The notes beneath the pieces are model-generated. The model ran no database searches, was not told where the DNA came from, and worked only from the letters and a program-made list of their open reading frames with translations. DNA of 63,734 nt, counting the filler, from Folioceros fuciformis (lineage: Eukaryota): the NCBI GenBank assembly GCA_049999805.1. It is 5 parts of 5 records of this genome, joined end to end, with 100 filler letters (N's around TTAATTAATTAA, not from the genome) between each part and the next. Parts side by side here need not be neighbours in the genome. Positions count along the whole stretch, not along the records: positions 1 to 21,515 come from JBNGIO010006217.1; 4 more parts are not named here. One strand, written 5' to 3'. Positions 6,095 to 50,422 of this stretch are shown piece after piece (the first letter of the stretch is position 1; each line of letters begins with the position of its first letter). The position numbers and the translations under genes are program-made.

Positions 6095-7512
6095 ATGGCC
6101 AAGGCCGTGTACATGATGGGGATGTGGATCCGGGAGACGGGCCAGGCGCTGGATCGCCTTGGCTGCCGGCTGCAGGGAAACTACGCCTTCAAAGAGCAAT
6201 GTAGGTTTGTGCGGGCCGTGGTTTGCCCCCGTTTGCTGAGGTCGGGCTGTGAGATGTTGAGCTGAGGAGTGAAGGACTGGCCCTTTTGCTAATTCCGGCA
6301 AGGTCGTGTTGTGAAGATGGTGAATTGAACATCCTGGTCTGGTGTGTGGTCGGAGTCAGCTGAGAGGCATACGAGTTCGCATCCGGTGGTTGCAGTGTTG
6401 CTGCTTGATTTTGACCTAGGCTGTGAATTCAGTTGGATATCTTAGTGGCTTCAGCTCGTAGATGTGAGAGGAGGCTGTTTCGCAACTTGTCCACACTGTA
6501 GCCCTAACTGCAGCCAGACGATTCTCTTTTCTCTTCCTCGTTGCGGTGGATGATGGACGTTTGTGGTGCAGTGAATAGGCAGAGGACGCTAATGAACATT
6601 TGGGACAAGAAGCCTTCCCTTGCGAATGATGCCTTCGTTGCCCCCAGTGCCACTGTGATTGGAGACGTTACAATTGGCAAGAGGTCATCCATCTGGTATG
6701 GCTGTGTCGTTAGAGGTACGGGTCTGCGCCCTGTTGTTGGTCATATTGTCCCCTGTCCTTGTATCGTGCAAGTTTTACGTTTTGTGGCCATCCTTGAGCT
6801 GCGTGTGGCACGGGCGATTGTTGCAGGAGATGTGAACCATATCACAATCGGGTCAGAGACAAACATCCAGGACAACACACTAGTTCACGTGGCTAAGACA
6901 AACGTGAGCGGGAATGTTGCTCCAACTATCATCGGCAGCAAAGTCACTGTCGGTAAGATAGGAAGTGTGAATCGTTGCGCAGTTTGTCGATGTGTGGTTG
7001 TGGTGAAAGTGCCATCTTTGTAACATGATATGGGTCAACGTTACCCTTCCACAGGTCATAATGCGGTCCTCCATGCTTGCACTGTGGAGGACGAATCATT
7101 TGTGGGAATGGGAGCAACCCTTCTTGATGGTGTTGTCGTAGAGAAAGGTGCTATGGTTGCTGCAGGTTCTCTTGTCACTCAAAACACCCGGATTCCCTCT
7201 GGACAGGTATTATCTGACTTCTTTCGTCAAGACATGTGTGTGTTTCCTTCGTTGCCATCCTAATGTAGTCTGATCCGCACGGAAAACCCCATCAGATCTG
7301 GGCAGGAAACCCGGCCAAGTTTCTGAGAAAGCTCACTGGCGAGGAACTTGCGTTCATCGAGAAGTCGGCCGACAATTATTCCAAATTGGCAGAAGATCAT
7401 GCCCGAGAGAACGCAAAGACAGTGGAGGAGATCGAGAACGAGAAGAAGCTGAGAAAGCAGTGGGCACGGCACAGCGATGACTATGACTCTCAGCTCGGCT
7501 TAGTCCGTGAAA
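6095..7512 (+). CDS. GAMMACA: Mitochondrial gamma carbonic anhydrase (complex I CA-domain subunit); 3' end runs into an N gap
   Basis: Exons 6095-6200, 6572-6715, 6827-6952, 7055-7206, 7296->7512. WIRETGQALDRLGCRLQG N-terminus, hexapeptide repeats, RGDVN, QDN, three Zn-ligand His (LVH, GHNAVLH), IWAGNPAKFLR, and DYDSQLGLVRE. Confidence 0.93.
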
Positions 7513-8128
7513 NNNNNNNNNNNNNNNNNNNNNNNNNNNNNNNNNNNNNNNNNNNNNNNNNNNNNNNNNNNNNNNNNNNNNNNNNNNNNNNNNNNNNNNN
7601 NNNNNNNNNNNNTTTGGTCCCCAGTAATGCTGCTGAACTTCAATCCAGCTCTCTGTTTCTTGCAATAAGATTTCAGGCTATCCCAACCCATGTCCTCTGC
7701 CTGAATGTTCCCTGCCTAGGTAGCAAAGATACAAGAAAGCTTCAATTGGATGTACGTAGGCAGAGGACCCCAAATTTTGTTCTACGTAGCTGGTGTCTGC
7801 TGCAGCTGTAAAACATTCTTCTCTTGAGCTCCAGCTCGAGGAATCTGAGTGGTTGTCCGAACAACTACTGCTCTCTGCAAAGAAGCCTAATAACTTGTGT
7901 GAGCCAGTCAGGTGCCTCTGTGCAGAAACTGTGTGCACAACAGCATCAGCAGCATACGGTTGCGTCGAGCTTGAGTCCAGTTACTGGAGTGACCCAAGGA
8001 ATGGGAAAATTGTTCGCAGGATGAATTGTGTCTCTTTATTTCTAACTTTTCCCGTGCAGCAGAATCTGCCTCCCGAATGGCTTGAACAACGAACTTACGG
8101 CGCTTGCGTTAAGCGAGGTGGGATTCTC

Positions 8129-10340
8129 ATGCTGGCAACTCCAGCTTGCGTGACGGATGAGGCCGGGAGCCAGCTGTGTCTTGATGGCCGCGTCGCCGAG
8201 GCTGTGGGGGCCTATGTGTTTTGGTGCTGCTGGATCGTGGCATTTCCACGTCGGTGTGTTGTTTGGGGGTGAAGAAATGCGGAGCGAAGAGAGCCAGGGG
8301 CAGGAATTTTGGATCTCGTTCTGGGTCGGCGGTTCATGCCTTGATGGCGAGGAACGGGTAGAAGTCGGTTGCGCTCCTGTGCAATCACGTCCTGCGGATT
8401 TGTGTTTCTCATGGGAGGTTGGCGAACGCCATAGATTTGTTTGAGGTGGTGGCGACGCCGGATGCCTTCACGTGGTCTGCCATAATCCCTGCTCATGTTA
8501 AGCACGGGGAAGACAGGCAAGCCGTGCGGCTGTATCGTCGGATGCGGAGGTCGGCAGTGAAGCCAGACGATCACGTGTATGCGGCGGCGTTGTGGGCTTG
8601 TGCCTCCAAGCCCGCAGGTGGATGCGGATGTGGCGGCGGGGGCAGTGGAATTGGAGCAGTAGCTGGTGATGTGGAGTGGGTTCGTAGACACGGATGTGAC
8701 GTGCGGGAGGCGGAAGGACGCTCGGGCTGTCTTCGAGGGGCTTGGTTCGGAGCGGAGGGATGTGGTTGTGTAGCAAACAGCTTGGTGAATATGTTTTCAA
8801 AATGTTGGAGCTTTGAAGATGCACAAAGAGTTTACGACGGACTTGGGCAAAAGGATGTAGTGGCGTGGAATGCCCTGACAGCAGGGTATGGGGAAGAAAG
8901 CCATGCGTTTTCACAGGGTGATGAAGGATGAGGGCCCCTCCGTACCCGTTTCGGTGACCTTTGTGTGCGTGCTTCAGGCATGTGCAAGTGTAGTCACCTT
9001 GTCTTTCAAGAGGGGAAGCAGCTGCATGCACAAATTAGAGAGCAAGGACGTCAATCGGATAAGTTTGTAGCCAGCAGTTTGGTGAACATGTATGCAAAGT
9101 GTGTCAGCTTGGAAGATGAGGAGAGAGTGTTTGATGGGGGCTTCGTCACAAGGATGTGGGGCTGTGGACTGTAATGATAGCAGGGTATTCCCACAATGGC
9201 ATGGAGCACGAAGCCCTTCGCCTACACAGTGCTATGCAAGATGAAGGCAGGCCGTACCTGACTCCCTGATATTCGTTTGTCTCATGTGCAAGTGTGGGTG
9301 CCCTGGCGTTGGAGAAGGGGAAGCAGCTCTATCAGCAGATTAGAGAAAAGGGCCTACAAGCTGATGTATTTGTAGCCAATAGTTTAGTAAACATGTACAT
9401 AAAGTGCGATAGCTTGGAAATGCTCAGAGACTGTTTGATGGACTTCGTCAGAAAGATGTGGTGACAACGACTGCTCTAATAGCATGCTATTCCCAGCAGG
9501 GTATGGGGTGGGAAGCCCTTCATGTACTTGGTGCGATGCTAGAAGAGGGCATTCTTGCACCCGATTCTATGGCATTTGTGTGCCTGCTCCAGGCATGTGC
9601 GAATGTGGAAGCTTTGTACTTGGGAAGGCAACTACACGCACAGATTTTAGAACTCGGGTTTCAATCGAATGTGTATGTTGTTGGAAGTTTGATTAACATG
9701 TATGGGAAGTCTGGGAGCATGGTTGAAGCACTGGAGGCGATCGACTCCTTGTCGTGACCTGAAGTGCACTCATTGCAGGCTACACCTGTCAAGGACAAAG
9801 TGGACTGGTCTTTGACTTTCTTCAGAGAATGAAAGAAGACGACATACAACCAGACAACATCACTTTACTTAGCGTACTAACTGTATGCACTCATCGGGTT
9901 AAGTGAAGAAGGAATGGGTGTACTTTCACGATATGAGCAGGCTCCACGGCATCACACCCTCGGAGGACCACGACACATACATGGTAGATCTGCTGGGGCG
10001 TGCAGGACAACTGGATGAGGCACTAGCTTTAGTAAAATCAATGCCCGTGCCCCCTACTTCTTCTGTTTGACACACTGATAGCTGGTTGCCGAAAGTGGAG
10101 CAACGTGTTGGTGGGTTGCCATGCTTTCAACGAAGCATTGCAGCTAGACAACACAGATGCCGCAGCAGATTTGTCGATGTCCAACATATGGACAGGTGCC
10201 CAGGTGTGGAAGCGAGCACAAGAATTGCAGGCGATGAGTAGATGAAAGAGGGCACGCAGTCAGCCAGGTCAGAGCCGGTGGGCAGACGAGGACGGCCTGG
10301 TGCACAGTGTTTTGGTCGGGGACTGGAAGCATCCGACCAG
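8129..10340 (+). pseudogene. PLS-class PPR (E+) pseudogene
   Basis: Degenerate P/L/S motifs spread over several frames with stops (PDAFTWSAIIPAHV, SLVNMFSKCWSFEDAQRVYD, MVDLLGRAGQLDEA). The C-terminal QPGQSRWADEDGLVHSVLVGD is collinear with the intact PPR at 47504-50011. Confidence 0.88.
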
Positions 10341-10547
10341 TCCACCAAGCAGGCGTCTTCGGAAAGTGAAAACCAAGGAATGGCAAAGATGAGAAACAAA
10401 AACGACTTGAATATTTATTTAGCCGCACAACAGAAGGCTTTGTCTATGTGGACTAAAATCCCGACCGGTTGGCCGTGTTCCACGCGGCCCAAGTTAGGTC
10501 TCGCGTCCAGCTCAGAATTTGTGGAAGGCACTTTAAGGTTACGAAAT

Positions 10548-12756
<2,209 letters not shown>

Positions 12757-12846
12757 AGGTGGGACCCTCTTGAAATGTAGGTTTCTATTTGAGTTTGCAC
12801 AAACGCGATGAATTATAAGAAACTCGTTGCGCCGTTGTTGTCACCT

Positions 12847-15800
12847 TCATACTTCGTCGTTTTTGTTCATGAGATTCTTTGCCTCCGTCAGCTCCTGACT
12901 TAACTGCTTAAGATATCCCAGTAGTCGTGCACCCTGCTCATGCCTGCGGTCTCCCACTAAAAATTTATGCACCTTATGGTTATACTCGATCCAGCTTTGG
13001 CCAGGACTCTTCTTCCAAGCCCGAGCTCTCTGCCTCAGCTCGTCTATCTCTTTCGCGCTGTCCCACATTCCCGCATCAGCATAGATGTTCAACATGAGAA
13101 CATATGCTGCAGCTTCTTGGGGATTCATTTCTATAGCGCGGTCGAAGGCTCGCCTTCCCAACACAGCATTGCCATGCTTCTGACACGCGCCAAGCAAGGA
13201 TAACCACACAGCAAGGTCAGGCTCAACTGGCATTCTCACAAGCAAATCTTCTGCCTTGTAAAAGAGGCCTGCTCGGCCAACCAGATCGATCACACAACCG
13301 TAGTGTTCTAACTGCGCATTGATACCGTAATCTCTGCTCATGGTCTCGAAATATTTCAGCCCTTCATCCACCCTGCAGGCGTGACTACAAGCTGAGAGGA
13401 GAGCCAAAAATGTGACACTATCAGGTCTCATTCCTGACAGACACAAGCGTTCATAACATTCAACACTTGTGTCCCACAATCCAAGGCGAGCATATCCAGC
13501 AATGAGTGCATTCCATGAAACAAGATCAGGATATGGCAGTGTGTCAAAAACTCGCTGAGCATACACCATGGTCCCACACTTGCCGTAGGCGTGAATAAGA
13601 CTGTTCGCAACGAAAGGATCGGACTCTATCCCAGCTTCTAGTATACTTTGGTGGATGTCCGAACACATATCTAAGGCTCCAGTTCTGCTGCATGCTTCTA
13701 ATACTGACAGGAATGTAATCTCATCTGGCTTCATCCCGTCTGCCTGCATTGCTGCATAAATCTGCAAAGCCGTCTCTCCTTGGTCCTGCTGGATATGTGC
13801 TGTAAGCATTGTGTTCCATGACACCACATTGCGATGTGGCAAGCTGTCAAAGACTCGTTGTGCATCCTGGATGCTCCCACACATCGAGTACATGCTAACC
13901 AAAGCATTGCCAACAAAAATATCTCCTTCAAATCCTCTTGCAGCGGCATCGGCATGGATCTCCTTCCCCTTTACCAGTGCGACCTCGTTCACATTTTGAC
14001 CATCCACAGGCACACTTGTCTCCTCGTCTGCAAGGACGGCACAAGCTTGAAGAGCATTGACGTAGGTCTGAGCATCTGGTAGAGCACCCTCTTCCTGCAT
14101 TTGATGATAGATCTGCAAACCCATTGCGCCTTGGCCCTGCTGGACATAAGCTCCAAGCATAGCTGTCCATAACACAACATCTTTTACAGACAAGGTATCA
14201 AACACCTGTCGAGCATCTGCTACGCTCCCACACTTCGCGTACATACTAACCAGAGAACTACCAACAAACACATCTGACTCAAAACCCAAGCTCGTAGCTA
14301 AAGCGTGCAGCCCCTTCACCTTGGTCAGTGACTCTGCCTTGATATTTTTCCCACGTTCCGCCACAGATACTTCCTTTTCTGCAATCGCACCGCAGGCTTG
14401 GAGGGCACTTACAAGAGTTCGAGCATCTGGCCTCACGCCTTGCTCTTGCATTTGCTCAAATATGCGCCAGCCCATATCTCCTTCATTCTGCTGAGCATAT
14501 GCTGCAACAATGGCAGTCCATGAAACGACATCACGCTGGGACAAACCATCAAACACCTGCTGTGCATCCATGATACTTCCGCATTTTCCATACATGCTAA
14601 CAAAGGCGCTACCAACAAATATATCGAATTCGCAGCCACATTTCACAGCGTGACCGTGTATCTCTTTTCCTTGGTGCAGTGATTTGACCTTGATGTTACG
14701 GCCATCCACAACTACAAGTTCCTCCTGTCCTGCAAGAATGGCACACGCTTGCACAGCGCTGGCAATAGTCCGAGCATCTGGTCTCACGCCTTTCCCCTGC
14801 ATTTGGGCCAAAATCCGCAACCCCTTTTCTCCAGCGTTCTCTTGTACATACGCTGCAAGGAGCGCATTCCATAACGCAACATCAGCCTGTGACATTTTAT
14901 CAAACACCTGCTGTGCGTTCATGATGCTCCCACACTTGGCATACATACATACCAGCGTGCTACCAACAAAGCCATCTGATTCAAAACCCATCTTCACCGC
15001 CGCAGCATGAATTTCCTTCCCCTTCCGCAACGACTCCACCTTCACGTTGTGCCCGTCAAGAAGTGTAGATTCCTCAGTATCTGCAACGATTCCACATGCT
15101 TGAACTGCCCTAAGAAACGTTCGAGCATCTGGTCTCAGTCCCAACTCTTGTATATGCTGATAGGTTTGCAGGACCCTCTCTCCTTGACCCTGCTGAGCAT
15201 ATGCTGCCAGCATCGCATTCCAAGAAACTATACTGCGTTCTGTCAATCTGTTGAAGACATTTTGAGCATCCTCCACACTCCCACATTTCGCATACATATT
15301 TATCAAAGTGTTACTAACAAACACATCCGCTTCAACACCCCTTCTGACGGCTTCTGCATGTATTTGCCTTCCCTTTCGAAGTGACTCGACTCTCACCTTT
15401 TGACCACACAAGAGTGCACTTTCCTCCCTGTCTGCAAGGCTGGCACACGCTTGGAGGGCGCTGACAAAGGTTCGAGCATCTGGACTGACCCCTTCCTCTT
15501 GCATTTGCCAATAGATCTGCAAGCCTTTCTCCCCTTGATTCTGTTGAGCATATGCCGCAACCATTGCATTCCACGACACCACATCACGATGTGACAGGGC
15601 ATCAAAGACCTGTTGCGCAGACAAAATGCTCTTGCACTTTGCATACATACTTACCAAAGTGCTACCAACAAACACATCAGATTCAAACCCATGTCTGCGA
15701 GCATCAGCATGAATTCGCTTGCCCTCTTCTAGGTCTTCCAACTTGCTACAGGCCTTCAGCAAGGTAACAAACGTATACTTATCAGGCTGCACACCTTCCC

Positions 15801-16436
15801 GTATCATCTGTTGATAGAATCTGAGAGCCTCCCGACATTGACCAGCATTAGTAAACCCTGAAATAATTGCGGTCCAGGAGAAAACACTTCGATTTGGCAG
15901 TCTGTGAAACAAGTGCAGACCATCCGCAAGACTTCCACAACTGACCAGTGTTGTAACCAGAAGCTCCCCCAAGCTACTGTTTACTTCCAACCCATGTTTT
16001 CCCAAGTGAGCATGCAACTGCTTGGCCCCAGCCAGAGATTTCTTCTTCACACACATGTGCAACAGACTCTTATACAAATGCATCGGAAGCACACTGCCCT
16101 GCTGATCGATGGGCAGCAGGGCAACCAGCGCCTTGTCAAGCCTTCCCTCTCGACATGAATCTTCCAGCTCATACACAAGACCAGAGGCCCCCAGGGTAAG
16201 GGGTAGCCTGCACAACGCGCAAGTCCAACGATCTTAGGGGAAAATTCTCCGCCACCAACAGTCTGGCCTGCATTGCAACAATCCACAATCCTTGATATTG
16301 AAACAACGTCTCTCTGACCCGTCCCTGCATACCTTCCATTTCCAGTCCTGCAGGCAAATGCAGCAGCGGGATAAGCCAAATGCTCCAGCGCCACGAGCCC
16401 AGATTGAGGGACAGTTGGGAGATGCAACGTCGCCAT
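12847..16436 (-). CDS. PLS-class PPR protein, E1-E2-E+ (PG box, no deaminase core), organellar RNA-editing-factor type
   Basis: Long open exon 16207-12847 with about 7 P-L-S triplets, HYGCVIDLVGRAG, E motifs and KKSPGQSWIE..HKFLVGDRRH. Probable exon 1 at 16436-16333 (MATLHLPTVPQSG..., transit-peptide-like) joins through a phase-2 GTATGC..TGCAG intron. Confidence 0.92.
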
Positions 16437-16716: not shown

Positions 16717-18138
16717 TCACGATGGGAGGCGAAGGGCCTCTACAAGAGTCTTGCCTTCTGGCCCTTTAGAGAAGACCTCGATGAAGTAGTTCCTGAATTT
16801 GACGGAGTCACAGCGAGGCGCATCCGCCTCGCTGATGAGCTCAGGAATGGGAGCGAGTACACAAGTACAGGATGGAATGAAGAAGGCGGCCAGACAGAAC
16901 CGCTCTTTGACACTGTTCACCAGCGCTCTGTGCACTATGCTTCTGTGCTTCCCATTGGAGAGGACCTGCAGACGAAACGTTTCTCAGTCGTGCGGGTAAG
17001 ATCATCATGGTAGATGAACCTGAGAGAGGCTGGCAGACTCCTACCTCCAGACAATCCTCGATGTTCACCACCAGAGCACCAGGGACGGGATCAACGAGCA
17101 CCCAGGACTTCCCTTCCGGACGGACCTGAAGCCCCGGGACTTTGCTTTGTAGCAGAATGGTAATGACGCTGCCATCGCTGTGGGAAAGAGTTCCCAGAGT
17201 GTGCTCTTGCTTGGGGCAGGGTGGGTACAGATTCTCCCGTAGAACACTGCCCATGTCACCGTTGGTGTCCAACATGTCATGGAGGTAGGATTCCTCCAGT
17301 CCCAAGTTCATGCTCAAAATTTCCAACACAGTCCTCGCCAGCTGCTCCACGTCCAACTGGTACTTCTCAATAACCTCCCTCCATCGTTGTTCAGACAATT
17401 TTGAAACATCATCCACGACAAGGAAGATATCATTCAGCAGCAAGCACGCTGTGTTACCGATATTTAGGTGGCTTGTCCGGCCATTCCAGGTTTCTCAGAG
17501 AAACTGGTGAGAGTGTATGGGCTAGAACGTCGTTCCAGTTCTTTGTTTTTCCAGGGTGCTCGTAAAATCGGCCATAGCCAGAGTATATGTCGGGCTTCAC
17601 AGCGTACTGTAGTTTAGTCTCGAACGGCATATCAAAGAACTGTTTGCAAACCTCCAAAGAATCAGCCATCACCAACTCCGGGACTCCATGATTCACCACC
17701 TGACAATTGCGTGAAACAAGTGGCGGTCACGGCATGTGAGAAGCAGGAAGGAGCTGTGTTGGAGCACATGCGAGATTCACCCGAAACAAGCCCCAATCCT
17801 GGCACGCAAGACGGATGTCCTCTGTCACTTTCTTCCTGACAGCCTCATCCTTGGAGAACCAGCCGGATAGGTGAATAACAGGAACTCCTTCCTCCTTGCC
17901 ATCTAAGTGTAGGGACGACAGATCACCATTGGGGCATGGGTGGTCAATGGGAGACTTCTGCCTAAATGCTTCAGGAACCTCCTGAATTCCTGCCTGCAGC
18001 ATGGGCTGGACCATGTTGTCTGTTCCCGCTCCTGCGGTGGATGCCTCGTCAACCAGGACCGAATTGGAAGCTATGGTCCCTTGCACTCCCAGACTTGACA
18101 GTCACAGTACCTTGGCCTGCGACCACCGGCATTTCCAT
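16717..18138 (-). CDS. 2-oxoglutarate/Fe(II)-dependent dioxygenase (DOXC class), 4 exons, possibly decaying
   Basis: Exons (18138 or 18014)-17781, 17699-17458, 17378-17045, 16965-16717. VPVIHL, ACQDWGLFRVVNHGV, NLYPPCP, HSD and distal H (SIVHRALVN). The 5' end is uncertain. Confidence 0.85.
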
Positions 18139-21615: not shown

Positions 21616-24607
21616 TACATAATGTTCTTGATGGATGAAGAAAGAGTGGTCCTCCTTGTTGTGTTCGAACTGTACCCCTAGTGCATACCATAGGGGTCCC
21701 ATGTCTACAACTCATACTCCTTTGACAGTAGGTCTCTCACATACTTGATAATCTCGGGACTGTCTCCAAAAACGAAGTTGTCGTTGACATACAGTGTAAC
21801 TATCGCGAATTTTTCCTTTGTTCTCAGGATGTAGACGCTGGTATCGGAGATGAGGGGAATGAAACCGCACTTCTTCAAGTATGTGTCCACAGTTTTGTTC
21901 CATACTTGTGCAGATTGCTTAAGTCCGTAAATAGACTTGAGTAGTTTGCACACTTTTCTGCTGTCCTTGATGAAGCCTGGTGGTTGAAGCATATAGATAT
22001 CTTTGTGTAGTGTGTCATACAAGAATGCCGTTTTTACATCTACCAGGTGGATGTGCAGGTGATGATGGGCTGCAAAGGCTAGCAGTATCCTGATTGAGGT
22101 TGCCTTCACCACAGGGCTGAACAGCCTGTTCTCCTCATAATCATAACCTGGTACCTGGGTGAAGCCACGGGCTACCAGCCTGGACTTGTATCTTGAAACA
22201 ATCCCATCGGCGTTGAGTTTTCTTCTGAAGGTCCATTTACAAGAGATTGGTTTGCATCCAGCAGGCAGGTTAGTGAGCTTCCAAGTATTACTGGTTATTA
22301 AGGAGTCGTATTCAGACTAGACAGATGCCTTCCACTTGGGTGTACTAAGAGCTTCTTCTTATATATATATATATATATATACATCTAAACGATGCTCTGA
22401 TACTATGTAAATTAACCTATTAGTAGGAAGTGAGATTTTTGTCTTAAATTACATTCTATTTCTTATATTGAGCATAATGATAAAGTACAAAGGTAGGTGT
22501 TTCTTTTATAGGTGCCCGGGGCACCTCTTTGCTAGGGGTGTGACCGTTCGGGGGTATAGTGGGATTAACCTAACTTGAACTGACTACTAACTGGGGTTAT
22601 GGGTTACTTAGCAGAAGAAACTGTTTCTAACAATCTAGTAGGGCAATGGTAAGGTGGCCTGATGCAGCAAGGAGGAAACCATCTCCTGCAACGTCATTTT
22701 GCTGTGGTGTATACACAACAGTGAGTTATCGCCCAATACCCTCCTCTGCACAGTATGTCTGAAATTTGTTAGATGTGAATTCTCCTCCGTTATTTGATCG
22801 GAGGGTCTTAAGCTGTTTTCTTATCCATCTCTCAACAAATTTTAAGTAAGTTTTGAATTGAGAGAAGGCTTCACTCTTGGCCTTCAAGATATAAGCCATG
22901 ACAAATATGGTCTTGTCATCAGCGAAGGTTAGGAGATACTTGCCACCACCTATTGAAGGCTGTGACAATGGCCCACAAATGTCAGAGTGGACTAATTTGA
23001 GGACATCAGAAGCTCTGTGTGGACTCCTGTTTTTGAAGGCTGCTTGGTGACGCTTGGATAACACACAAGCTTCACACAGGGGTAAGATAGGAAGAGTGCC
23101 AATCTTTCCATCATAGTATACGTCACTGGTAGCAAGTTTTGGCAGCTTAGCACCATATGGATTACCTAACCTATTGTGCCATAATATGGCTTTGTCTGTT
23201 TGATGTGAAGGTGAGAGGTCACCTTGTGACGTCAAGTGGGACTGCATAGGAATACTGTGCAAGTGAAGTCGTAAAAGATCATGGTTAGAGGATCCATAAG
23301 CTAAGACCTTCGATGATCAAATGCATCTAGGATCTGACACTCTGTAGGGGTAAACAAAATGTGACTGTTGTTGTCTCTATTTAATTGCCTGACAGAAATG
23401 AGGTTCTTGGTCATTCCAGGCACATAGTAAACATTGGTGAGGGACAATTTTAGCCCTGAAGGAAGAGGAAGGAACACTGTGCCCTTACCTGGAGATACCA
23501 ATGCCCTGTCATCACCTAAATAGACAAACTGATCGTTTACTTGCCTGTAGGTGGCTAAGACACTTCTATCAAAGCAAATGTGTGTTGTTGCACTTGTGTC
23601 TAAGTACCACTCTTGAAATGGTCTAGACTCTGCTATTGCAGATAAGCATGTGGGAAAGACTAGAGGTTGAGTAAACTCCCTTACCCCTACTGTCAGGGCG
23701 GAAGGGGAGGATTGCTTCTTTACCACGACGTGTGTTTCAGCATTCACATTGCCCTTCTTGCGAGGTATGCCAGCCTGCTTTTTACGACACTCATTTCCCA
23801 ATGGCTGGGAATTTTGCACCAGTTGCATTTCTCGGTCTTTTTGGGTTTCTTCTGTGAGGAGGCTCCCGGTGAGCAAAAATACTACACTGTACAGCAGGTG
23901 TAGTATTTTTGCCTCTAGGGTATGGTTTGTTTCCTCTTCCCTTATATGAGGTGTAGAGTGCTTGCTGTTTCCCATGCTTAGGTCCACCTCTTGTGGCTTC
24001 TTCTTGAAGAAGAGCTCCCACTAACTTAGAGAAGGTCATGGGAGGTAGTTTGATCCTGGCAGTAGATGCCAGCTTCTGAGCTTGTGCTTGTGAAGTGTTA
24101 TACGAAGTCACAAAATTCGACCAAGAGGCAGGTAATGAAAGCATTAAATAGAGTGCTAACATATCTTCCTTGATGGCTTCCTGTGTTGTTCCTTCCAACT
24201 TAGAAACAAGATGTCTGAAAGTAGCAATGTGCTTTTACTGAGTCCCCATCTCGCATCCTGCAGAGTTGAAGGTTTTTGAGGGCTGTCATCTGACTGGTTG
24301 AATTTCCACCAGAGTAAAGCTCACGAAGTCTAGACCAGATATGTGATGCAGATACAGCTCTTGAAGTGTGCCTCAACATTTCAGAGGTTAGGCCACACCG
24401 TATCATGTACATGGCTGCGTCATTTCTGACTGTCCATGCCTTGACAATTGCTGCATCATCTGTATCTAACTCATCATCTCCGGTTGTTACATCCCAAAGT
24501 CCTTTGTTCTTAAGAGCACCTTGCATCCTCATCACCCAGATATCGTAATTCTCCCCTCCGAACCTGTCCTTTTCCTTAAACATGTCACTGCTTATGTTAT
24601 AGGACAA
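21616..24607 (-). mobile_element. Degenerate Ty1/Copia internal region (gag, protease, integrase, RT)
   Basis: gag FGGENYDIWVMRMQGAL and LMLSLPASW; protease WYLDTSATTH; GAG-pre-integrase WHNRLG..CEAC; integrase VHSDICGP and LRSNNGGEF; RT VDVKTAFL, KSIYGLKQS, LYVND. Many stops and frameshifts. Confidence 0.92.
22394..22632 (-). mobile_element. Nested LTR (about 227 bp, TG..CA) with tRNA-Met-type PBS, truncated
   Basis: gctctgatacta (reverse complement of the PBS, 1 mismatch) at 22394-22405, followed by tgtaaat...tctaaca. An (AT)n tract lies next to it, and it interrupts the host element between integrase and RT. Confidence 0.6.
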
Positions 24608-26537
24608 TTTGGGTTTGGTATCTTCGTCACCCGTGTTTGTAGGATTTAACAGACACTAATGTGTGAAGTTGTAACCTGTGCTGTGCAGGTTAATCACAAC
24701 AAAGTATCTAGGAACAAATGTTAGGAGATGAATGATACCTAGTTCATGAAGACATCAGCAATCACAGAACATAATCAGGGTTAGAAACTCTATGTTGTGC
24801 TGCTGTCAATTTGTTTTCTAATTTTAAATGCCTCATCTTCCACTTATTATATGCGCAGGTGGAGTATAATGAGCAACAATTGGGTGCATCAAATCTGTGA
24901 CTTCTATTTGTCTTATCAGTATGCCTGTATACAACTCTAGAATGAGGGGAATTAGCAAGCATATGTGATTTCGACAAAGTCAACAATTTGAAATTCAGGT
25001 GAGAGATTTCTTCTCTCAGACCTTGAATACCCACACTAGAATCAATAAGGCGTCGCATGATGCTACTATGATTCCTTTCTATGTGGTTTTGGTATGATTC
25101 AAGCCTAGTTAGTAACGGCGAAATCCCTGTGTCTGATGCAGCATAAGTTGTGAGAAGTCCCCTATGATTGAGGTTACCAACAAAGCTCGCTGCAATCGCA
25201 CCACTTATGGAATCAACTTTCGGGGAAAATAAGGAGCAAAAGTCAAATGTCTCTGACCAAGGTAGAGAGTCTCCACTATTGTATTGAAGGCCTCCTGTAG
25301 GTTTCTGCAGAGATTAGGCGAATCTTGGTTGCGCAACATCCATGTCACAGTGTGCTGATGGATGGACTCCACAAGATTATGCCTGTTTTGATTTCGATTT
25401 TGCTACCTCATGTTGTTGTTTGCACGCTCAACAGGAACGTGCCAGACATTGTTTCCGCCGGTAGCCATTTGTGCCTGAATTTGTAGAAGCTTACAAGTAA
25501 AATGCAAATTATATGCATTTCTGTAAGCTATTTTCAATAAATTTCAGAAATCAATATAAAGGATCTGGCAATTGTTCTAGTGTACCTCTGCCAAAATTGC
25601 CTAAGGCAATCTGACCAGTGATGCACTAGAACAAGATCCAGGTTTAGCACATCTCCTTATAAAACANNNNNNNNNNNNNNNNNNNNNNNNNNNNNNNNNN
25701 NNNNNNNNNNNNNNNNNNNNNNNNNNNNNNNNNNNNNNNNNNNNNNNNNNNNNNNNNNNNNNNNNNAAGAAATTACATGTAGATGTAGATTTATTATAAA
25801 AATAACATTGCATATATTCAAGAAAAGAGAGTAAGTAAAACATTGAAACTTAAACTTAACTATTCATGAATGGGTGTGACTATTCATAATAGTCGTAACC
25901 CTAGCAAAGAGGTAAGACATTTTAAACTATACACACAATATGAAACTGGATATAATATAACCCTAATCTCATAATGCCAACATCGATACTCCTTCAATTA
26001 TGATGCTGGCTAGTGTCATGACTTAGAAAGTCCGTTAGAGTTTTGCATATGTGTGAACTTGTTGTGCAGATTGGTACTACATAAGTTGATCACTCATGGC
26101 AAATATGTGCATGGAAAGAGTAAATCTCTTGCGCTTTGACTAAAGAGACAGTTAACGGAGGAAAAGTTCTTAAAGAGAACAATTGGAGAGTACGCTTTTT
26201 GGCGGTTAACTTTGTGCACAGTTTATACCGGTTTAGGAATGTCCATCCAGGTGGTTGGTAACAGAATGGTGTGAGTATATAGTGATCAAGTAAGAATGAT
26301 TGGACATTCTTTTGATAATTCGCTTAGAAAGCTTGACAAAAAGGGAATGCACTAAGTGCTTTGGACCATTCGATTGCAATTGAAAAGCTGGTAGCGAACT
26401 GAACAATTGAATCAAAGCTTCTGTGTTACAAATTCTGTTTCCATGTATCATTGCATTTGAAAACGTTGTGATGGCGTGACGCAGAGCATCGTCGAACTGA
26501 CATCTTAAAACTTGTCAAGTGATTATGTCACAGCAAG

Positions 26538-30322: not shown

Positions 30323-33300
30323 CCCCCACTCAATGAGTATTGCCGTGATCTAGTCGAGATGTGTGTTTTGTGTTCTCTCACTCCTATAGCTTGGCACAGC
30401 TCCAAACCTGCAAACCGAGAGCATGCAATGACCAGGTACGTTCTGACACATTGTCTACACTATTGCTCAATCTGCAAACCTATACTACGCCCAACAACTA
30501 GCTCTTGATCATCCTCCTCCAGGTACAAGTCCAAGGCGCCTGCAATTTTCAAAATGCTGCTCCGCAGACAATGCCTTGGTTAAAATGTCCGCCGGATTCT
30601 TTGAAGTGCCTGATGTAGATTAATCTCACCTCGCCCCTTGCCACCACATCTCTAACAAAGTGATGATGAACCTCTATATGCTTCGTTCGGGAATGAAAAA
30701 CCGGGTTGTTGGTGAGGGGAATCGCTCCTTGGTTATCACAATATAGTTCTGTTGGTTCAGCCTGAGTTTGCCCAATGTTGTCCAAGCACCTTCGATCCCA
30801 GATGGCTTCCTTGGCAGCCATTGTCAATGTCTTGTATTCTGCTTCGGTACTTGATAGACAAATGTTTGCATTTTTCTTGCATGACCAAGAGATTGGTCCA
30901 CCAGCTAGTACAAAGACATATGCAGCGACGGACTTCCTACTGTCTGGGTCTACTGCCCAGTCACTATCACAAAATCCTACCAGCTCAAGCACTCTGCTGT
31001 CCACACCCTGGTAAATGATGCAATAGTCTGCTATATGCTTCAGGTATCTCATAATCTGCTTGACCTGAATCCAATGATCTTTGCCATGGCTTGCTAGGAA
31101 TTGAGAAACAAGATGCACATAAAACACAATATCCACCCTTGTCAAGCACGTCAGGTATATTAGCGTACCTATTGCTTCTTTGTAAGGCACCTTTTGCATT
31201 TCCTGAATTTCTGCTGCTGAGGCCGCTGCTTGCTCTTTTGACAACTTCACACCTGTAGACAAAGGAGTATTGTTGCCATGGGCATCCATCAGATTAAACC
31301 TGCTAAGCATGTCATTTATGTACTTCTTCGGCGACAGTTTGATCGACCTCTTGGATCTATCCCTGATCACCTCGACTCCCAAGCACCACTTGAGGGGACC
31401 TATGTCCGTCATTTCAAACTCCGCCTTCAGCAGATTTTTGACTGTGATTAGCAAACTAGCCGGACCTGGTGTTGCTGCTAGTATCAAATCATCTACATAC
31501 ACCAACAACAACAGGTATATTCCCTTCCTTTTTAGCACATACAAGTTGCAATCAGCTGTGGCCTTGATGAAACCACACGTCAACAAGAAAGCATCCAGCC
31601 TGTTGTGCCATGCTCGTGGGCTTTGCTTGAGCCCATAGAGTGTTTTGTTCAACTTGCACACCAGGTGTTCGCTTCCCTTTTTAACATACCCTTCTGGCTG
31701 CTGCATGTAGATTTCCTCATCCAAGGTTCCATTCAGAAAAGCTGTGCGAATGTCCATCTGTTCAAGATCAAGATCTTCATGTGCAGCCATGGCCAAGACA
31801 AGTCTAAGGGTCGGAAACTTCACAACAGGTGCAAATGTTTCGAAATAATCTTCTCCTGCACATTGTGAGAATCCTCTCACCACCAATCTTGCCTTCAACC
31901 TTTCTACGGACCCATCAACATTAAATTTAGTTTTGAAAACCCACTTATTGCTGATTGCTCTCCTGTTCTATGGCAGCTCCTGCAGGGTCCAAGTTCCATT
32001 TTTGATCAAGGATGCATACTCATCCTCGACTGCCTTCCTCCAGCCCTTACATCTGGGCCACTTTACGCCTCTTTCATGGTTGCTGGATCAGTTGGATTCA
32101 CGTTGGTTGCAGCGACTGCCAACACTTGAGCAACTGTGAGTTCATTATCCGGGTGACCTTGCTGTATGGTAGCCAGGAGGGATGAAAACGTGGGTGCTTC
32201 TTCCTCATCACTCATGTGCTCGTCCTCTCCTGCAAAAAAGTCCCCCACTGGATGCGAACTATCTACCTCTCCTGTGGAAAAATCAGTACGGCTGTGGCTA
32301 CTGGTCCACTGTTCAGGCCGGTAGAATGCAGGTGCTGTGCGAGTCCTAGTCGATGCTCGTGCTGGTGGTACTTCAGGTGCCGCTGGAGCTTCTGGAGCCT
32401 CCTCAAAAACTTTATCCCCTGCAGAAATCAAATCTGAGTCCTGAAGCACTTCCCCACTGAATCTTCGCCAGATATATCGAAGGTGTCCTCTTCGTCATGA
32501 GATACACTATGCTCGGATTGGTCAAATACTACTGGTTGGACTTCCTCCAGATTGTCCAATGCCATATCCAGTCTACTATGCCCAAATTCGAACGTGCTAA
32601 CTACATCTTCTTCTTGTGTAGGGGCAGCTTTAGGCATGGAATGTGAGGGCTCACCTCCACCAGCAGCAGCAGTGTGCTTGTGCTCCAGCAAAGCCTCATT
32701 GAAAATCACACTACGAGCATACTCAACCTGCCTAGTTGCAGGATCAAACAACTTATATGCCTTTATTCCATCTGTATACCCGATGAACACCCGCTTCACA
32801 GCTCTGTCCGACAGTTTTGCATGCTCCCTCTTCTGCTTGGGAACATGGGCGTAGGCTGGAGAGCCAAAAGCCCTCAGATGCTGCATTGTTGGTTTTCTCC
32901 CGCACCACAATTCATAGGGGGTTCGACCCTACAATGAACTGGTTGGCAACCTATTGTGAAGGTAAGCTGCTGTTGTAACTGCCTCTCCCCAATAGGTTAG
33001 GGGCAAATTCGCATGCTTCAATAACGCCCTTGTGGTGTCTTGACTAGTTTGATTCCACCTCTCCGCAACGCCATTTTGCGAGGAGCTATAAGGCACAGTG
33101 AATTGGCGTGCAATGCCAAGGTTGCTGCAGTAGTCATTGAATGCATTTGAGTCAAATTCTCCTCCATTGTCAGTTCGTAGGTAGAGAATTTTCACACCTA
33201 GCTGCAACTCTAGGCCAAGTAATGTTTAAAGCACCCAAAAGCTTTGTTCTTATGCTTCAAAATATAGATGTGCACATATCTGCTGTAATCATCTATAAAT

Positions 33301-36012
33301 GTTAAGAAATACCGGCCTCCCCCAAATGACTCCTTTGACACTGGGCCACACAGGTATACATGAACTGGCTACAACAATCCAGTTGCTCTTGTGCCACCAC
33401 CCTTCGGAAATGCTTTTACATGGTGCTTAGCAAAAGTACATGCTTCACAGAAATCTAGCCTGCTCAAGTTCTTTGGTACACCATCAAAATACACATCCAA
33501 ATTCTTCATTGCACTCAGCTTAGTGGGGTTCGTGTGCCCCAATCTCATGTGCCAGATATGAGTCACCCCAGCATCAGAAATAGATGGACTGACACCCGCT
33601 AATTGTGCTGAAGGTGCTGGTATACTATGTGCATCTAATGAGAACAAGTCGTGGGCTAAACTACCTCCGGCAATTGTTTTCCTTGACTGTTTGATTAGTC
33701 ACATGGACTTCTTAAAAATAACCTCATTGTGATTATCTGATGTGAGCTGATGAACTGAAAGCAAATTCTTTGTTATACTTGGAACATGAAGTACATTTCT
33801 GAGTGTGAGAATGGAACCACTTCTTAAGCGTAGGTTAACATCTCCTACTGCATGTATTTCTAGCTGACTATTGTCACCTAATAGCACTGTTTGTGGGGTA
33901 CTATTCTTAACATAGCTCACAAAGACAGATCTATCACAACAAATATGGGCAGTTGCCCTAGAGTCCACATACCAGCTTCCCTCGCAAGAGCTGGTTGCAT
34001 TCAGGCACACTGTTAGTGCTTGATGTGTATGACGGAACCTCTTGGTCGGCTTCTCATCAGCGCTGCATTCAGCTCCTTCCACAATAGAGGTCAGACTCGG
34101 AGGTGAACAAACCATGAGCACCGACGGCGATGTCTTCTCCTTCTTGGCGGCCACATGTGCCTCAAGTAACGGAACACGCCTCAGCTCATTGTTTTTCTTC
34201 TTCCTACAGTCCCTCTCCCAGTGGTTGGGAAGGCCGCACCAATTGCAGTTCCCTACTCTCTTCTTGTTTCCCGATGACTCTCCAGGTCCACTCAGGTTCG
34301 ACCACTTGCCCTTGCCAACCTGCTTGTTGCCCTGTGGCTGTCCAGGTCTCATAGGGCCCTTGGGCCTTGTAGTGAAGAGAGCTTGGCTTCTAGGTGGCTT
34401 GGATAACTGCCTGGTCATCTCCTCTTGCAGCAGAGCTCCAACCAATTCGTTGAACTCCAGTGCACGCAACTGATCATCATCGATGTTTGCTACCAAGGCC
34501 AGCTGCCTGGCCATCCGCAACACCGCATTCTGGCTAGACACAAAGTGTGAATAGCTCGGGGGTAAGGCTGACAGAAATCTTACACAGGCATCCTGCTCAT
34601 TCACTCGTGCACCAGTCTGCTCCAGCTTGAGTCTTGCACTCCGAAACTGCGTGACAAACTGGTCAATCGGTTCTCCTTCCCGCATTTTGAGTGAATGAAA
34701 TTTGGTTTGAGCAGCCATCCTCGTCATCATATCCTTGGCATGATAGACCATGGCCAAGTGATCTCACATTTCCTTAGATGTTTGGGCATCAATCACACTC
34801 ATAGCCATTTGCTCACTCAAGCCAATGCGAATAATGCCTTGTGCTCTCTCATCTAGCTGATCCCAGCGCTGCTGTCCAGGTGAAGTGCTTCGGAAACTAA
34901 GGATGTCATCGTCCGGCCTTGGAGTTTCTCCTGTGACATGTCCCCACAAGCCAGCTTCCCTCAAGAAACCACGCATGCGCATCACCCACACATCGTAGTG
35001 GGCTCCGCTGGTAAGGCGGTCCTTTTCCTTGAAATCAACCTTCATAGATGGGAGTCTCTCATGGTTAAGTCTTTCCTCGCGTTATTCTCCACCCTTTCTC
35101 TTCTTTCCTCTTCTCTATCCGCTCTCAGTTTTTCTAACCTCTCTTGTTCCTTCCTTGCACGCTCATAGTTGGCTTCCTCGTCCATTTCTGACTATTCAGC
35201 ACCCTCTTGGAACAAGCCCCTAATGCTCGCTTGAACTTGGTACTCAAGTGCCTGATCGAAGCCTTCATCTGAGCCGTCCTCCAGGATTTAAGATGAGGTA
35301 TCCTGAGTTGCACCCGCAGCAGGTGCATCAATTGTACACGGGGGGTCACAGAGCTGGTAGCGCCCTCTTCTCCTGAATTCGCAAGGATCGAAGCATGCTG
35401 GCCTCCTCTCTTGATGCCGATTAGCAAACCACCAATGCCGAGATTGCTCCATGGTCACTTGATGCATGTCAGCATTAGCAGCAGCGGTATCGCTGCTCTC
35501 CTCATCCTGGACCGTCCAATCCTCTCAAGAAACCACCAATCTCCAGAGCTTCCAGCACCCACTTGACCCAGCAAATTGTGCACAGGTTCTTAGGATCGAT
35601 GGAGCACAAGCCTTGCACGCTTGCGCACCGGGAAAGCACCAGATTGTGTGCTCCAGGTCTGGCCGTATTGTCGCCTTCGCTGCCTCACGCCAGGCTGCCT
35701 GCTACTGCACGCACACTGCTGGCTACAACAACCCAGCAATGCCGCTAGCACCTGGCTGCACTCCACCAGGCCTGGCAGCCCCTCACGCAAGTGCGCAACT
35801 AGGTCGCCGCCCAGCTGCGCCTCTACCACACGCCGCCGCGCTGTATCCAGCAATCCATCTCAGCCGCGCTGTATCCAGCAATCCATCTCAGCCACGCTAC
35901 CTGCATAGACGAATTCTGGCCTCTCTCAAGTGTGTGCGCCGCACGGATTAGCGGCCGCCAGGTCAAGCAATCAGCGCGCCCAAGTGCGCCATCTCCACCT
36001 GCTCTGATACCA

Positions 36013-36904: not shown

Positions 36905-39900
36905 CTAATTATGAGTGGAAAGGCTCCTCCCACTTATGATACAAAGGAAAACCCTGCTAGCGTATGTACATAAGTTGAGTACCAAAAAGAGAGAGGGGGA
37001 GAACTGGCCTAGAGCCCAAAACTCAAGACAAGGCGCTCTGCGAGCGCTCCCCAATCCGATGGTACCCGCATACTGCCAAAGCCTCTCACAGACCCTAAAT
37101 ACATCCACCTCCAAGCCTCTCACAGACCCTAAATACTCACCTTCCCCAGGGGCACGAGTGATTCCAGCGATCTTTCCTAGACGATAGGAGACCTGCCGTT
37201 CTCCAGTCTTTCCTCTTGAACTAATTCCATCAGGATTGCTCCGACGGATTGCTCCAGGGCTTCTGCTGCTATCAATAAATGCTCCCATATGCACCATAGC
37301 AAAGCTTTCGGCGAGGCCGACTTCTGTCCACCATAAACCACCGTGGACCAGTTGGCCCAGAGGTGAAAAAGACACGAAGACCACAGTAAGCCCCACCATT
37401 GGGTTTTCAGGAGAGGCTTGCCCGAGGCTGCATCCAACCCGAATAGGGCTGATTGACTCGTGATCCTGAGGTTAGCACTAGGAAAGATCAATTGAAGCCA
37501 CCTGCCCACTTCCCTCCAGATCTCTTGAGCATTATTGCAATGAAAGAATATGTGGTGACTCTTGTTTGGAGCCCCCTTGGTGCACAGTCGACACACATCC
37601 TCACCCACTGCAGCTAACAGCCCATCCTAGTGATCCGCATTAGGCAAACACACTTGAAAGAAACACCAAATCGTAAACCTGACCTTGGGTGGGACTCCTG
37701 CGGACTTCCATAGGAGCTTGATGGCTTCCCTTAGTCATCGTCTAGCTAGTTGCAGTCGGGCGCCATTGGTTGTCTTTGCTTGACTTGCTACGCTCGCACC
37801 AACCGGAGGAACAGATCCGCCATTGGGAAGTTGAAGAAAGATTGAGAAGAATCCTTTTTGCACCCCGGACGCTTGGGCCACCTATAAAGATCTGGTCTGA
37901 AGGTCAGAGCCCAGTTCTCACCTAATCGGAACCAACATTGAACCTTTGTTTTATCGGAGGTACGTGACCCAATTGGGCGTTCGCCTGCCATGCACCATCG
38001 CCCTCCCCAAGCGAATTTATAGAGGACAGTGATAGCCCGCAGCTCTCCCCCTCGGCTTTCCCCATCGTCCCTACCCTGCACTTCCAGAGAACCGTGAGGA
38101 GCCACAACCTGGAACGACTCCAGTATCTCTTTGCCATCAGCTCTCGCAAACTAGATCGCCCTGTCCAGATCCACTGCTTCGTCATGCTCATCCTCCTCCT
38201 CTGACTCGCTTCCTTTACTATCCATGGAGTAAGCGTACCACCCTTCCTCTCCCATGATAGGTTTCTGCCTTAAGAGCTGTTGCACCTTTTCCACTAATCC
38301 CTCGTGCAAGCATGAAAAAATAAACTTGACGTGCCGGGCCCCAATGCCAAACTCCCCTTTGACCTCCGCTACTTCCTTCCAGCGGGACTCAACTCTGTTC
38401 CATAAATGTCCAAGCCGGATAACGCCTTTCCGACAAGCCAGCCCGAAGATTTGTGACCGATTTACCCTATACCTGAAGTCTTGTACCCATAATCTCGAGA
38501 AACCCTGCAAAGGAATACCAAGAACATCATCCACATGGGAGAAGTTGCCCGGAAGAACATAATGTTTGACCTCCAGATAACTACTCCAAATAGACTTAAA
38601 AAGCGGGGAGCAATCTGTAGTATCCAATAGCGGTTTGTTAGCCAGAATGTTGTCTATATGCCTCCTTCCCTTGGGGACAGCTTGAGTGCAATCCAAGTGC
38701 TATGTTAGAAGGCTCTTCCAAGGATAGTTTGTTGGATCAGCTGCTCTAACAAGCCACTGCGCATGCAAAACTTTCATCTTGGCAACCGGGTCCACCACCC
38801 CAAGACCCCAATCCACGCGGCTGAATAATATGCTGCCAAGACACCTTAGAACACCCTGCCATACTATCTCTCGAATGCTTCCACAGGAAAGAAATCAGCA
38901 CCTGTTGTAAGCGCCTCACCTCTGACTTAGAAGGGGCCCACAAAAACAAATAGTACCAAAGAGTTGCAATTAGGATATGGTTGATCACCACCAACCTACC
39001 TGCCAAATTGAGCTCCAACAATTGTAAACCAGCCGCTTTTCGAATGAACCTGAGACAGACGTACTGCCCTATCTCCCCATTCTCATCCCCTTCTTGGAAA
39101 GGGAGCCCCAAATATTTGTGAGTAGACCCGAGGGTCACTCGCCTGATGTGATTAATACACTGAGGGGGCTCTCCCTCCATGTGAAGACACATCATGCGCG
39201 TCTTGTTCCAATTCACCTTGTAGCACGAAAGCTCACCAAAGACCTTAACCTGTTGGAGCAGCGCTTTTAATGAGGCCTCCTTTGTCGAGGAAAAAAGAAG
39301 AGTATCATCTACGAATGCAGATACCCTTATCTGTGTCCCATTTGAGTTCCGAATACCCACCACTGCCGGGTCTTGCTTGACAGCTCTAAGAAAGAAGTCA
39401 GTGACGATAATAAATAAAAATGGAGCAAGGGGGCATCCCAAACGTACCGACCGGGAGATTTCGAAACGCTCCGTAAGAGAACCATTGACAGCTACCTTGG
39501 CACCTGCGTCTTCACACAAAATGGCTATCCATCTGCAGAAGTTATTTCCAAAGCCGAAACTACGTAGGCATCGCCATAGGAAGTGCCACTCAATTGAATC
39601 ATAGGCCTTGTAGAAGTCAAGGGAAATGAAAACAACAGCTTTCTTCTGTACCTGTGCATTGTATTTAGCCTCCCTCAGAAGAAGTAGGTTGTCCAGGATG
39701 CACCTATTTTGAATGAACTTTCTCTGTTCTTTCTCAATCCAATCATCAAGAAATGGAGTAATTCGGTTAGCCAGTACCTTAGAAATCACCTTGTACGTGG
39801 TAGTGAGCAAGGTAATCGGGCACCAGTTGGATATTGGTAAACTGGCGTCTTGCTTAGGCAGTAGGGAGATAACCCCCAAATTGAACCAACCCCCCATGCT

Positions 39901-50011: not shown

Positions 50012-50422
50012 CACGCAAACTCCAGTTACATGTGCAGGTTGGGCAACCCATGTGCTTATCCAGAGCTATCCGGGCCGAAGCCACGAGCCCTTGTGCCAAC
50101 TACAGCCTCGCTGCTGCAAATCAGAGCCCCGGATGCTTCAAGGGAACGACGGCCAAACACCTGAGCTAACGCAGAAACAAGTCTCATTCCAGCTGCCCTA
50201 CACTGCCCCGCCCTGCCCTGCCCTTCCCTGAGCCTGAGCCTGACCCGAAGCTTGCACCACACGATTTGATCTTGTAATTTGATAATCGCAAAATGCGATT
50301 TCATAATTTTTGGCACCGAAGAGAAGAGGAAGGGGCCGGGCCTGACATACGTACTGTCTGTAGTTCACATCACTGTTCTTGGAAGGCCAAGCGTACCGAT
50401 CCAACGTCCCTGGCTGCGGCTC

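Follow-up and report, generated by a model that had tools for sequence, protein, structure and literature searches.

Of all the parts of the PLS-class pentatricopeptide repeat (PPR) editing factors, the L motif is the one least understood. It obeys the PPR code only loosely and depends, in seed plants, on MORF proteins, and for both reasons those who design synthetic editors seek to do without it. Lurin 2004 and Cheng 2016 reportedly place the canonical L1 motif of PLS proteins at 35-36 residues. The same length (35 or 36 amino acids) is given for L motifs in a 2026 PPR-DYW structure paper (PMC13324415). Here we describe a PPR gene in a 63,734-nucleotide stretch of Folioceros fuciformis DNA (GenBank assembly GCA_049999805.1; the whole stretch, hereafter the window) whose product has five consecutive L motifs of 51 residues, each predicted to hold a beta-hairpin between its two helices.

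Among the closest described elements is the canonical L1 motif itself. The window motif shares with it the place in the P1-L1-S1 triplet and the flanking residues (T3, F4, V5, A10-C11 ... L-x-x-G-K-x-I-H ... G-x-x-x-D), but is 51 residues long, with a predicted helix a about five residues longer, a predicted beta-hairpin, and changes at positions 2 and 43-44. Solved PLS structures – a synthetic PPR-DYW protein with RNA (9kfx) and a designer PLS protein with MORF9 (5iww) – have the same superhelical scaffold; their L motifs, however, align to the window profile over positions 3-14 and 31-51 only, leaving the extension uncovered. The MORF/RIP proteins of seed plants are likewise specific to L motifs, which they bind; on binding, helix b swings about 6 degrees inward and takes up the geometry for RNA binding (PMC13041630). 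According to PMC8809517, plants other than seed plants have no MORF, and the lineages to which the named long-L carriers belong are among those that this source reports as lacking it; yet MORF is a separate protein, whereas the long-L extension is 16 residues built into the motif. E and E+ editing factors, whose PLS arrays also end after E2 without a deaminase, borrow a DYW domain in trans (CRR4 from DYW1; E+ proteins with DYW2/NUWA; PMC11121751, PMC13324415), but these are seed-plant proteins with ordinary L motifs. Monotypic arrays of S-type motifs (SS) are a PPR variant of Selaginella (PMC8809517) and, like the long L motif, a variant concentrated in lycophytes. The SS variant, however, changes the type of array and adds no secondary-structure element, whereas the long L motif would add a beta-hairpin to an all-helical repeat.

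In the literature searched, including a 2026 PPR structure review, there was no mention of a 51-residue L motif, of an L-motif insertion or of a PPR hairpin; the search did not cover the Cheng 2016 and Gutmann 2020 surveys. While the PPR family, its PLS class and the E subclass are familiar, a structured beta element within a PPR repeat, and the subfamily that carries it, appear to be new. Both surveys are said to have included Selaginella moellendorffii, and specialists may therefore have met long L1 matches already. A natural L-motif variant with a confidently predicted hairpin, confined to a coherent subfamily of MORF-less lineages and mostly on deaminase-less proteins, offers a concrete handle on the L-motif question. 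It also has a practical side: motif finders that assume L motifs of 35-36 residues will split or mis-score the proteins that carry it.

Five consecutive L motifs of 51 residues

The gene lies on the minus strand at window 12847-16215, an intronless open reading frame (ORF) of 1122 codons plus stop whose product is an E-subclass member of the PLS class of PPR proteins (PPR_2 match at E 3.5e-111 in a Pfam scan). An N-terminal L/S-like region is followed by seven tandem P1-L1-S1 triplets, P2-L2-S2, E1 and E2. P1 motifs start regularly (residues 111, 212, 329, 446, 563, 680 and 797), giving triplets of 101, 117, 117, 117, 117, 117 and 101 residues, and the predicted fold superposes on 9kfx and 5iww; the Pfam E_motif (PF20431) covers residues 1014-1077, and the C-terminus aligns with relatives that end in E2. 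The initial annotation had described the protein as lacking a deaminase, and this is borne out: there is no DYW deaminase family among the 14 Pfam families listed for the ORF protein, nor a DYW-like remnant downstream of the stop codon in any frame, the ORF ending 14 residues past E2. The window protein thus lacks the domain (with its HxE and CxxC zinc ligands) that marks the PPR-DYW subclass. A look-up in a protein atlas returned generic PPR clusters only.

A canonical L1 motif spans 35-36 residues and has a short a-b turn; five of the seven L1 motifs depart from this form. These five, in triplets 2 to 6, are 51 residues each against 35 in the ordinary form, and all 16 added residues fall within the L motif, between the A-C that closes helix a and the L-x-x-G-K-x-I-H that opens helix b. 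The flanking residues of canonical L1, and a fifth/last pair of the V/D type, are kept. The five 21-residue strings quoted in the initial annotation were found letter for letter (Table 1), and the two flanking L1 motifs are indeed of the ordinary 35 residues. At the turn of the predicted hairpin, three copies have D-G, one has C-G and long L motif 4 has R-G; long L motif 5 has N in place of the conserved K29.

The five long triplets share 52-60% identity among themselves and 52-59% with the best triplets of other proteins. Because the copies are as far from each other as from the triplets of other proteins, the run of five is read as an inherited architecture, with no sign of recent intragenic duplication. 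Tandem Repeats Finder reported no DNA-level tandem repeat in the gene, as is explained by units that are this divergent as protein. For triplet 1, three triplets from elsewhere in the subfamily show 61-65% identity, the best being that of P0030 (residues 76-176); their positions suggest that these are the first triplets of their proteins.

Table 1. Features of the PPR gene, with positions in the window and in the ORF protein
Feature	Residues	Window	Strand	Extension (residues; window)	Quoted 21-residue string (window)	Basis
Triplet 1 (101 residues, ordinary 35-residue L1)	111-211	15583..15885	-			P1 spacing
Long L motif 1	247-297	15325..15477	-	~262-277; 15385-15432	15382-15444	AlphaFold2 model 1
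Long L motif 2	364-414	14974..15126	-	~379-394; 15034-15081	15031-15093	AlphaFold2 model 1
Long L motif 3	481-531	14623..14775	-	~496-511; 14683-14730	14680-14742	both AlphaFold2 runs, alike
Long L motif 4	598-648	14272..14424	-	~613-628; 14332-14379	14329-14391	AlphaFold2 model 2
Long L motif 5	715-765	13921..14073	-	~730-745; 13981-14028	13978-14040	AlphaFold2 model 2
Triplet 7 (101 residues, ordinary 35-residue L1)	797-897	13525..13827	-			P1 spacing
P2-L2-S2, then E1-E2 and stop codon	898-1000 (P2-L2-S2)	12847..13524	-			Pfam; C-terminal alignment with relatives

Predicted structure of the long L motif

Two fragments were modelled with AlphaFold2: residues 212-562 (run 1; alignment A1, 46 rows) and residues 446-796 (run 2; alignment A3, 51 rows). 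Both models are confident, with a mean predicted local distance difference test score (pLDDT) of 96.1 and a predicted template modelling score (pTM) of 0.88 for run 1, and of 96.8 and 0.90 for run 2. The initial annotation had suggested an insertion between helices a and b that looked like a beta-hairpin, and the models agree, with the addition of a lengthened helix a. All five extensions are modelled alike: a 17-residue helix a (L positions 1-17), about five residues longer than in an ordinary L motif, leads into a beta-hairpin of two three-residue strands (21-23 and 26-28) that flank a two-residue turn, after which helix b runs from 30 to 45. In long L motif 1, for example, helix a is predicted at residues 247-263, the strands at 267-269 and 272-274, and helix b at 276-291; the same helix-hairpin-helix lies at fragment residues 153-197 for long L motif 2 (model 1), and the strands of long L motif 4 are predicted at fragment residues 173-175 and 178-180 (model 2). 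Averaged over the 10-residue block around each hairpin, pLDDT is 92-95 (93, 92 and 92 for long L motifs 1, 2 and 4), and no residue falls below 50 in either fragment.

The scaffold is that of known PLS proteins. A Foldseek comparison aligned it to 9kfx_A with a template modelling (TM) score of 0.81 (root-mean-square deviation 2.0 Å, 41% identity, E 1e-21) and to 5iww_D with a TM score of 0.76 (2.9 Å, E 1.3e-19). The extension, on the other hand, was not found in the Protein Data Bank (PDB): a profile search of all PDB sequences matched these chains only at positions 3-14 and 31-51 of the motif, and since these matches flank the extension on both sides without covering it, no solved PPR structure includes it.

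A coherent subfamily in lycophytes and ferns

Homologues were collected as the 120 best matches to residues 212-796 (at most 47% identity), which with the query make 121 proteins. A 117-column triplet hidden Markov model (HMM), built from the in-register alignment A1, found 888 complete triplets in them. Triplet lengths are bimodal: 402 are of 101 residues and 89 of 102, while 199 are of 117 residues and 331 fall within 113-119. Because the lengths are bimodal across related proteins, the long form is not a matter of chance. Long triplets occur in 71 of the 121 proteins and are missing from the other 50; the feature is not private to one gene. Carriers follow a nearly invariant pattern, with a short first triplet, long internal ones and a short last one. 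When triplets are numbered from the C-terminal end, the long form occupies position 1 in 6 of the 71 carriers and each of positions 2-5 in 61-67 of 66-71 proteins. The window protein, with one short triplet at either end of five long ones (s-L-L-L-L-L-s), is a typical carrier. The run of five to which the initial annotation had drawn attention is thus real and consecutive, but it is not peculiar to this gene: it is the standard architecture of a subfamily of lycophytes and ferns.

Among the named sources, long triplets occur in Selaginella moellendorffii (53 long, 10 short, from 10 proteins), Adiantum (36 and 110, from 18 proteins) and Diphasiastrum (4 and 66, from 10 proteins). Three transcript-derived ORFs from EukProt contribute 18 long and 6 short triplets, and Logan contigs 222 long and 157 short. 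Only short triplets were found in this set for Ceratopteris (22, from 2 proteins), Ginkgo (64), Cryptomeria (28) and the liverwort Calypogeia (8).

A second profile (A2) was made from the five L motifs of the window alone. By local calibration, a score of at least 131 bits is reached by 61 of the 71 carriers and by none of the 50 non-carriers. Searched against 1.84 billion cluster representatives, it gave 447 matches at E<=1e-3, 241 at E<=1e-10 and 69 at E<=1e-30, and the best 150 matches include 149 with long triplets (115 of 115 newly found, 34 of 35 previously collected). An exact-sequence look-up of 20 newly found matches returned names for 14: Selaginella 9, Ceratopteris richardii 3, Diphasiastrum 1 and Adiantum nelumboides 1. 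All named carriers are lycophytes (Selaginella, Diphasiastrum) or ferns (Adiantum, Ceratopteris), and none is a seed plant, a moss or a liverwort. Among the 71 carriers of the 121-protein set, 69 have no DYW domain.

A tree was calculated from P2-L2-S2-E1, leaving out the extension (116 rows, 148 columns, quick search). The long/short label requires 5 changes on this tree compared with 37.2 in shuffles, and none of 500 shuffles was as low. All 68 of the 68 carriers in the tree lie on one side of a branch with a Shimodaira-Hasegawa-like approximate likelihood ratio (SH-aLRT) support of 97, together with 18 short-only proteins; a single carrier clade is not rejected by the approximately unbiased (AU) test (p 0.34), and the window protein groups with the carriers. 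Tree, AU test and taxon counts together indicate that the long L motif defines a coherent subfamily common to lycophytes and ferns. On this comparison of sequences, the subfamily with 51-residue internal L1 motifs is old and phylogenetically coherent.

How old depends in part on the placement of the window organism. An exon of the neighboring single-copy ECD/SGT1-family gene is 45-50% identical to angiosperm, conifer and Sphagnum sequences alike (best match 61%), and there is no fern or lycophyte among its best 120 matches. These identities argue that the window does not come from a close relative of Selaginella, Diphasiastrum, Adiantum or Ceratopteris; should its source be neither a lycophyte nor a fern, the subfamily would go back much further than its named carriers indicate.

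Conservation and correlated changes

In 95 gap-free long triplets, conservation over the extension is 0.79 at L14, 0.81 at A15, 0.81 at E18, 0.72 at G25, 0.73 at K29 and 0.84 at L33. The differences between long and short L motifs are not limited to the insertion, even within the same proteins. At position 2, long motifs have R (0.53) and short ones Y, V or I; in helix b, position 43 is A (0.67) in long motifs versus I in short ones (0.71 in all-short proteins), and position 44 is R or W versus I or V. Such differences beyond the added residues fit a repacked motif class better than a bare insertion, in line with the distinct class of about 51 residues suggested in the initial annotation.

Alternatively, the extension might be a tolerated and essentially neutral embellishment, with a single origin and spread by triplet duplication and family expansion. 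It is less conserved than its flanks (figures below), triplet lengths vary between 113 and 119 residues, and the subfamily is small, with 69 to 447 representatives depending on the cut-off. However, the length and the E18/G25/K29 pattern have been retained across lycophytes and ferns, the long form is near all-or-none within a protein with first and last triplets systematically short, helix b carries correlated substitutions, and the fold is confidently predicted. We consider neutrality unlikely. The pattern of retained residues points rather to a constraint on the extension that is weaker than on its flanks but real, since different lineages retain its length, the glycine of the turn, a glutamate and a lysine.

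Reads and transcripts

A quite different explanation is that the insertions are artefactual – unspliced mini-introns of 48 nt, an assembly error, or the decay of a pseudogene – and the fact that no sequencing run of this organism is recorded as RNA leaves some room for it. All five insertions are, however, in frame within an open ORF of 1122 codons, and the three transcript-derived EukProt ORFs, which come from other species, retain the extension (18 long triplets). Run X1, a DNA run, agrees with the window, with no differences listed. Run X3 behaves otherwise: its contigs join across nine GT..AG introns in two genes upstream, none of which X1 skips, from which it follows that X3 holds spliced RNA. 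An X3 contig covers 13335-14251 without difference or gap and so spans extension 5, unbroken in a run that joins nine neighboring introns, which argues against a mini-intron; there is no extension-skipping joint among the 15 joints listed (15 of 24). Taken together, an artefact can be practically dismissed.

X3 may also contain unspliced RNA or DNA, because one of its contigs is unbroken over 17043-18115, where the ORFs of a neighboring gene shift frame. This is a 2OG-Fe(II) oxygenase gene (PF03171; window 16841-18086, minus strand), split over three ORFs in different frames. As contigs prove neither expression nor strand, and the run is possibly mixed, the X3 cover of the PPR gene is a weak hint of transcription. 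Just upstream of the PPR ORF the X3 cover is nearly nil, an observation of which no use is made here as evidence.

What the hairpin may do

Base recognition in PPR proteins rests with residue 5, where helix a begins, and with the last residue of the motif; the a-b turn is at the opposite end of the helices. The P and S motifs of the window protein have canonical fifth/last pairs (TD, ND, SD, NS and NN), and the long L motifs keep their usual V/L/A-D pair. On the reading that we favor, the P and S motifs would read the RNA bases while the long L motifs add little to base choice, and the hairpin, at the a-b turn, would stand on the solenoid rim, across from the residues that read the bases. It would then be a built-in structural element that holds the L motif and its neighbors in binding-competent geometry. 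A variant of the same reading is that the hairpins may form a regularly spaced rim for protein contacts, again with no extra base reader. We thus regard the window protein as, probably, an organelle-type E-subclass PPR of an old subfamily, in which the hairpin is a built-in brace or a protein-contact rim and not a base reader. A brace, or protein docking on the rim, is more likely than base reading because the hairpin would lie on the rim, away from the bases, and because the extension is slightly acidic.

The initial annotation had pictured the repeated insertion as a ridge that could bind RNA, and hairpins that contact RNA might add affinity or read RNA structure. K29 is conserved (as given above), the hairpin half of the extension is slightly basic (mean charge +0.5), and a hairpin recurs at every third motif, all as such a ridge would have it. 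Yet the extension as a whole is acidic (mean charge -0.9, with -1.4 in its helix part), K29 is lost from the fifth copy in the window, and the a-b turn is far from base-reading residues 5 and 35 in established PPR structures (see also PMC13041630). An RNA-binding ridge is for these reasons disfavored, and we hold direct contact with RNA to be very unlikely.

A further possibility concerns the missing deaminase. A DYW domain is found in only 2 of the 71 carriers (P0055 and, from Diphasiastrum, P0098) versus 14 of the 50 all-short proteins, and most carriers stop after E1 or E2. Such proteins might need a partner in trans, and the hairpins – regularly spaced, structured and on the solvent side, as predicted by AlphaFold2 – could serve as its docking ridge, the candidate partner being a free-standing DYW deaminase or an adaptor. 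E and E+ proteins of flowering plants do recruit proteins of this kind (DYW1, DYW2 or the MEF8 type). The comparison is, however, confounded by taxon, many of the all-short DYW proteins being from seed plants: a link between hairpin and missing deaminase is suggested by the counts but carries this confounder with it. Moreover, hairpins and a DYW domain occur together in two carriers, and in known cases the recruitment of DYW takes place at the E2 end and not along the array (PMC13324415). A docking ridge for a deaminase partner is thus possible but doubtful.

The most far-reaching proposal would make the hairpin L motif a functionally distinct class belonging to MORF-less plants: either an in-cis equivalent of MORF/RIP that locks the geometry of the L motif, or a docking rail for a deaminase in trans. 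We think this distinctly unlikely. MORF-less lineages mostly have ordinary short L motifs (66 of 70 triplets in Diphasiastrum, 8 of 8 in Calypogeia), and because many of their proteins do without the hairpin, it is not generally required. These counts also tell against the brace-or-rim reading, and several other observations stand with them. Conservation of the extension is modest: its mean information is 1.32 bits compared with 2.0-2.5 bits in the flanks, the five copies in the window are 38% identical in extension columns versus 59% elsewhere, and in two ortholog pairs between Adiantum capillus-veneris and A. nelumboides (78% identical overall) the extension is 65-66% identical versus 84% for the rest of the long triplets. 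The helix-hairpin-helix fold of the long L motif is a predicted one, and the two AlphaFold2 runs are not independent, since most alignment rows are common to both. Where the hairpin would lie relative to RNA, or to the next turn of the superhelix, is taken by analogy from general PPR geometry. Carrier frequencies in the 121-protein set are biased because the homologues were picked by similarity to a long-L query. Lastly, the first ATG of the open frame is at codon 45, with none earlier, so the gene model is incomplete at its 5' end (start codon, 5' exon, transit peptide).

Neighboring features in the window

A second PLS-class PPR ORF lies on the minus strand at window 47507-50065 (853 residues stop to stop) and has an E motif and no DYW domain. 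In three of its L motifs the a-b loop has seven residues, an excess of two over the usual form, and the 16-residue extension is missing; PLS genes with and without the extension are thus found less than 35 kb apart along the joined multi-record window. A degenerate PPR pseudogene is present on the plus strand at about 8300-10250, with PLS-like motifs in all three frames interrupted by stops and frameshifts. Within it, contigs are stacked about 2400 deep over the bin 9038-9471 in both the DNA and the RNA-like run, indicating a high-copy repeat.

The ECD/SGT1-family gene lies on the plus strand at 10242-13328 (PF07093, E 1e-85) and has five GT..AG introns of 77-127 nt. The X3 contig that joins its last intron extends to 13328; the 3' end of the gene would therefore share some 480 nt with the end of the convergent PPR ORF. 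At 7513-7612, an assembly gap of about 100 N interrupts a gene at ~6200-8000, and the same 21 letters bridge this gap in X1 and in X3. Four long ORFs (21708-24655, 30552-34763, 38154-42191 and 60524-63181) lie in AT-richer stretches of the window (GC 0.35-0.45); judged from the text of the ORFs, they look like reverse-transcriptase, integrase and gag parts of retrotransposons.

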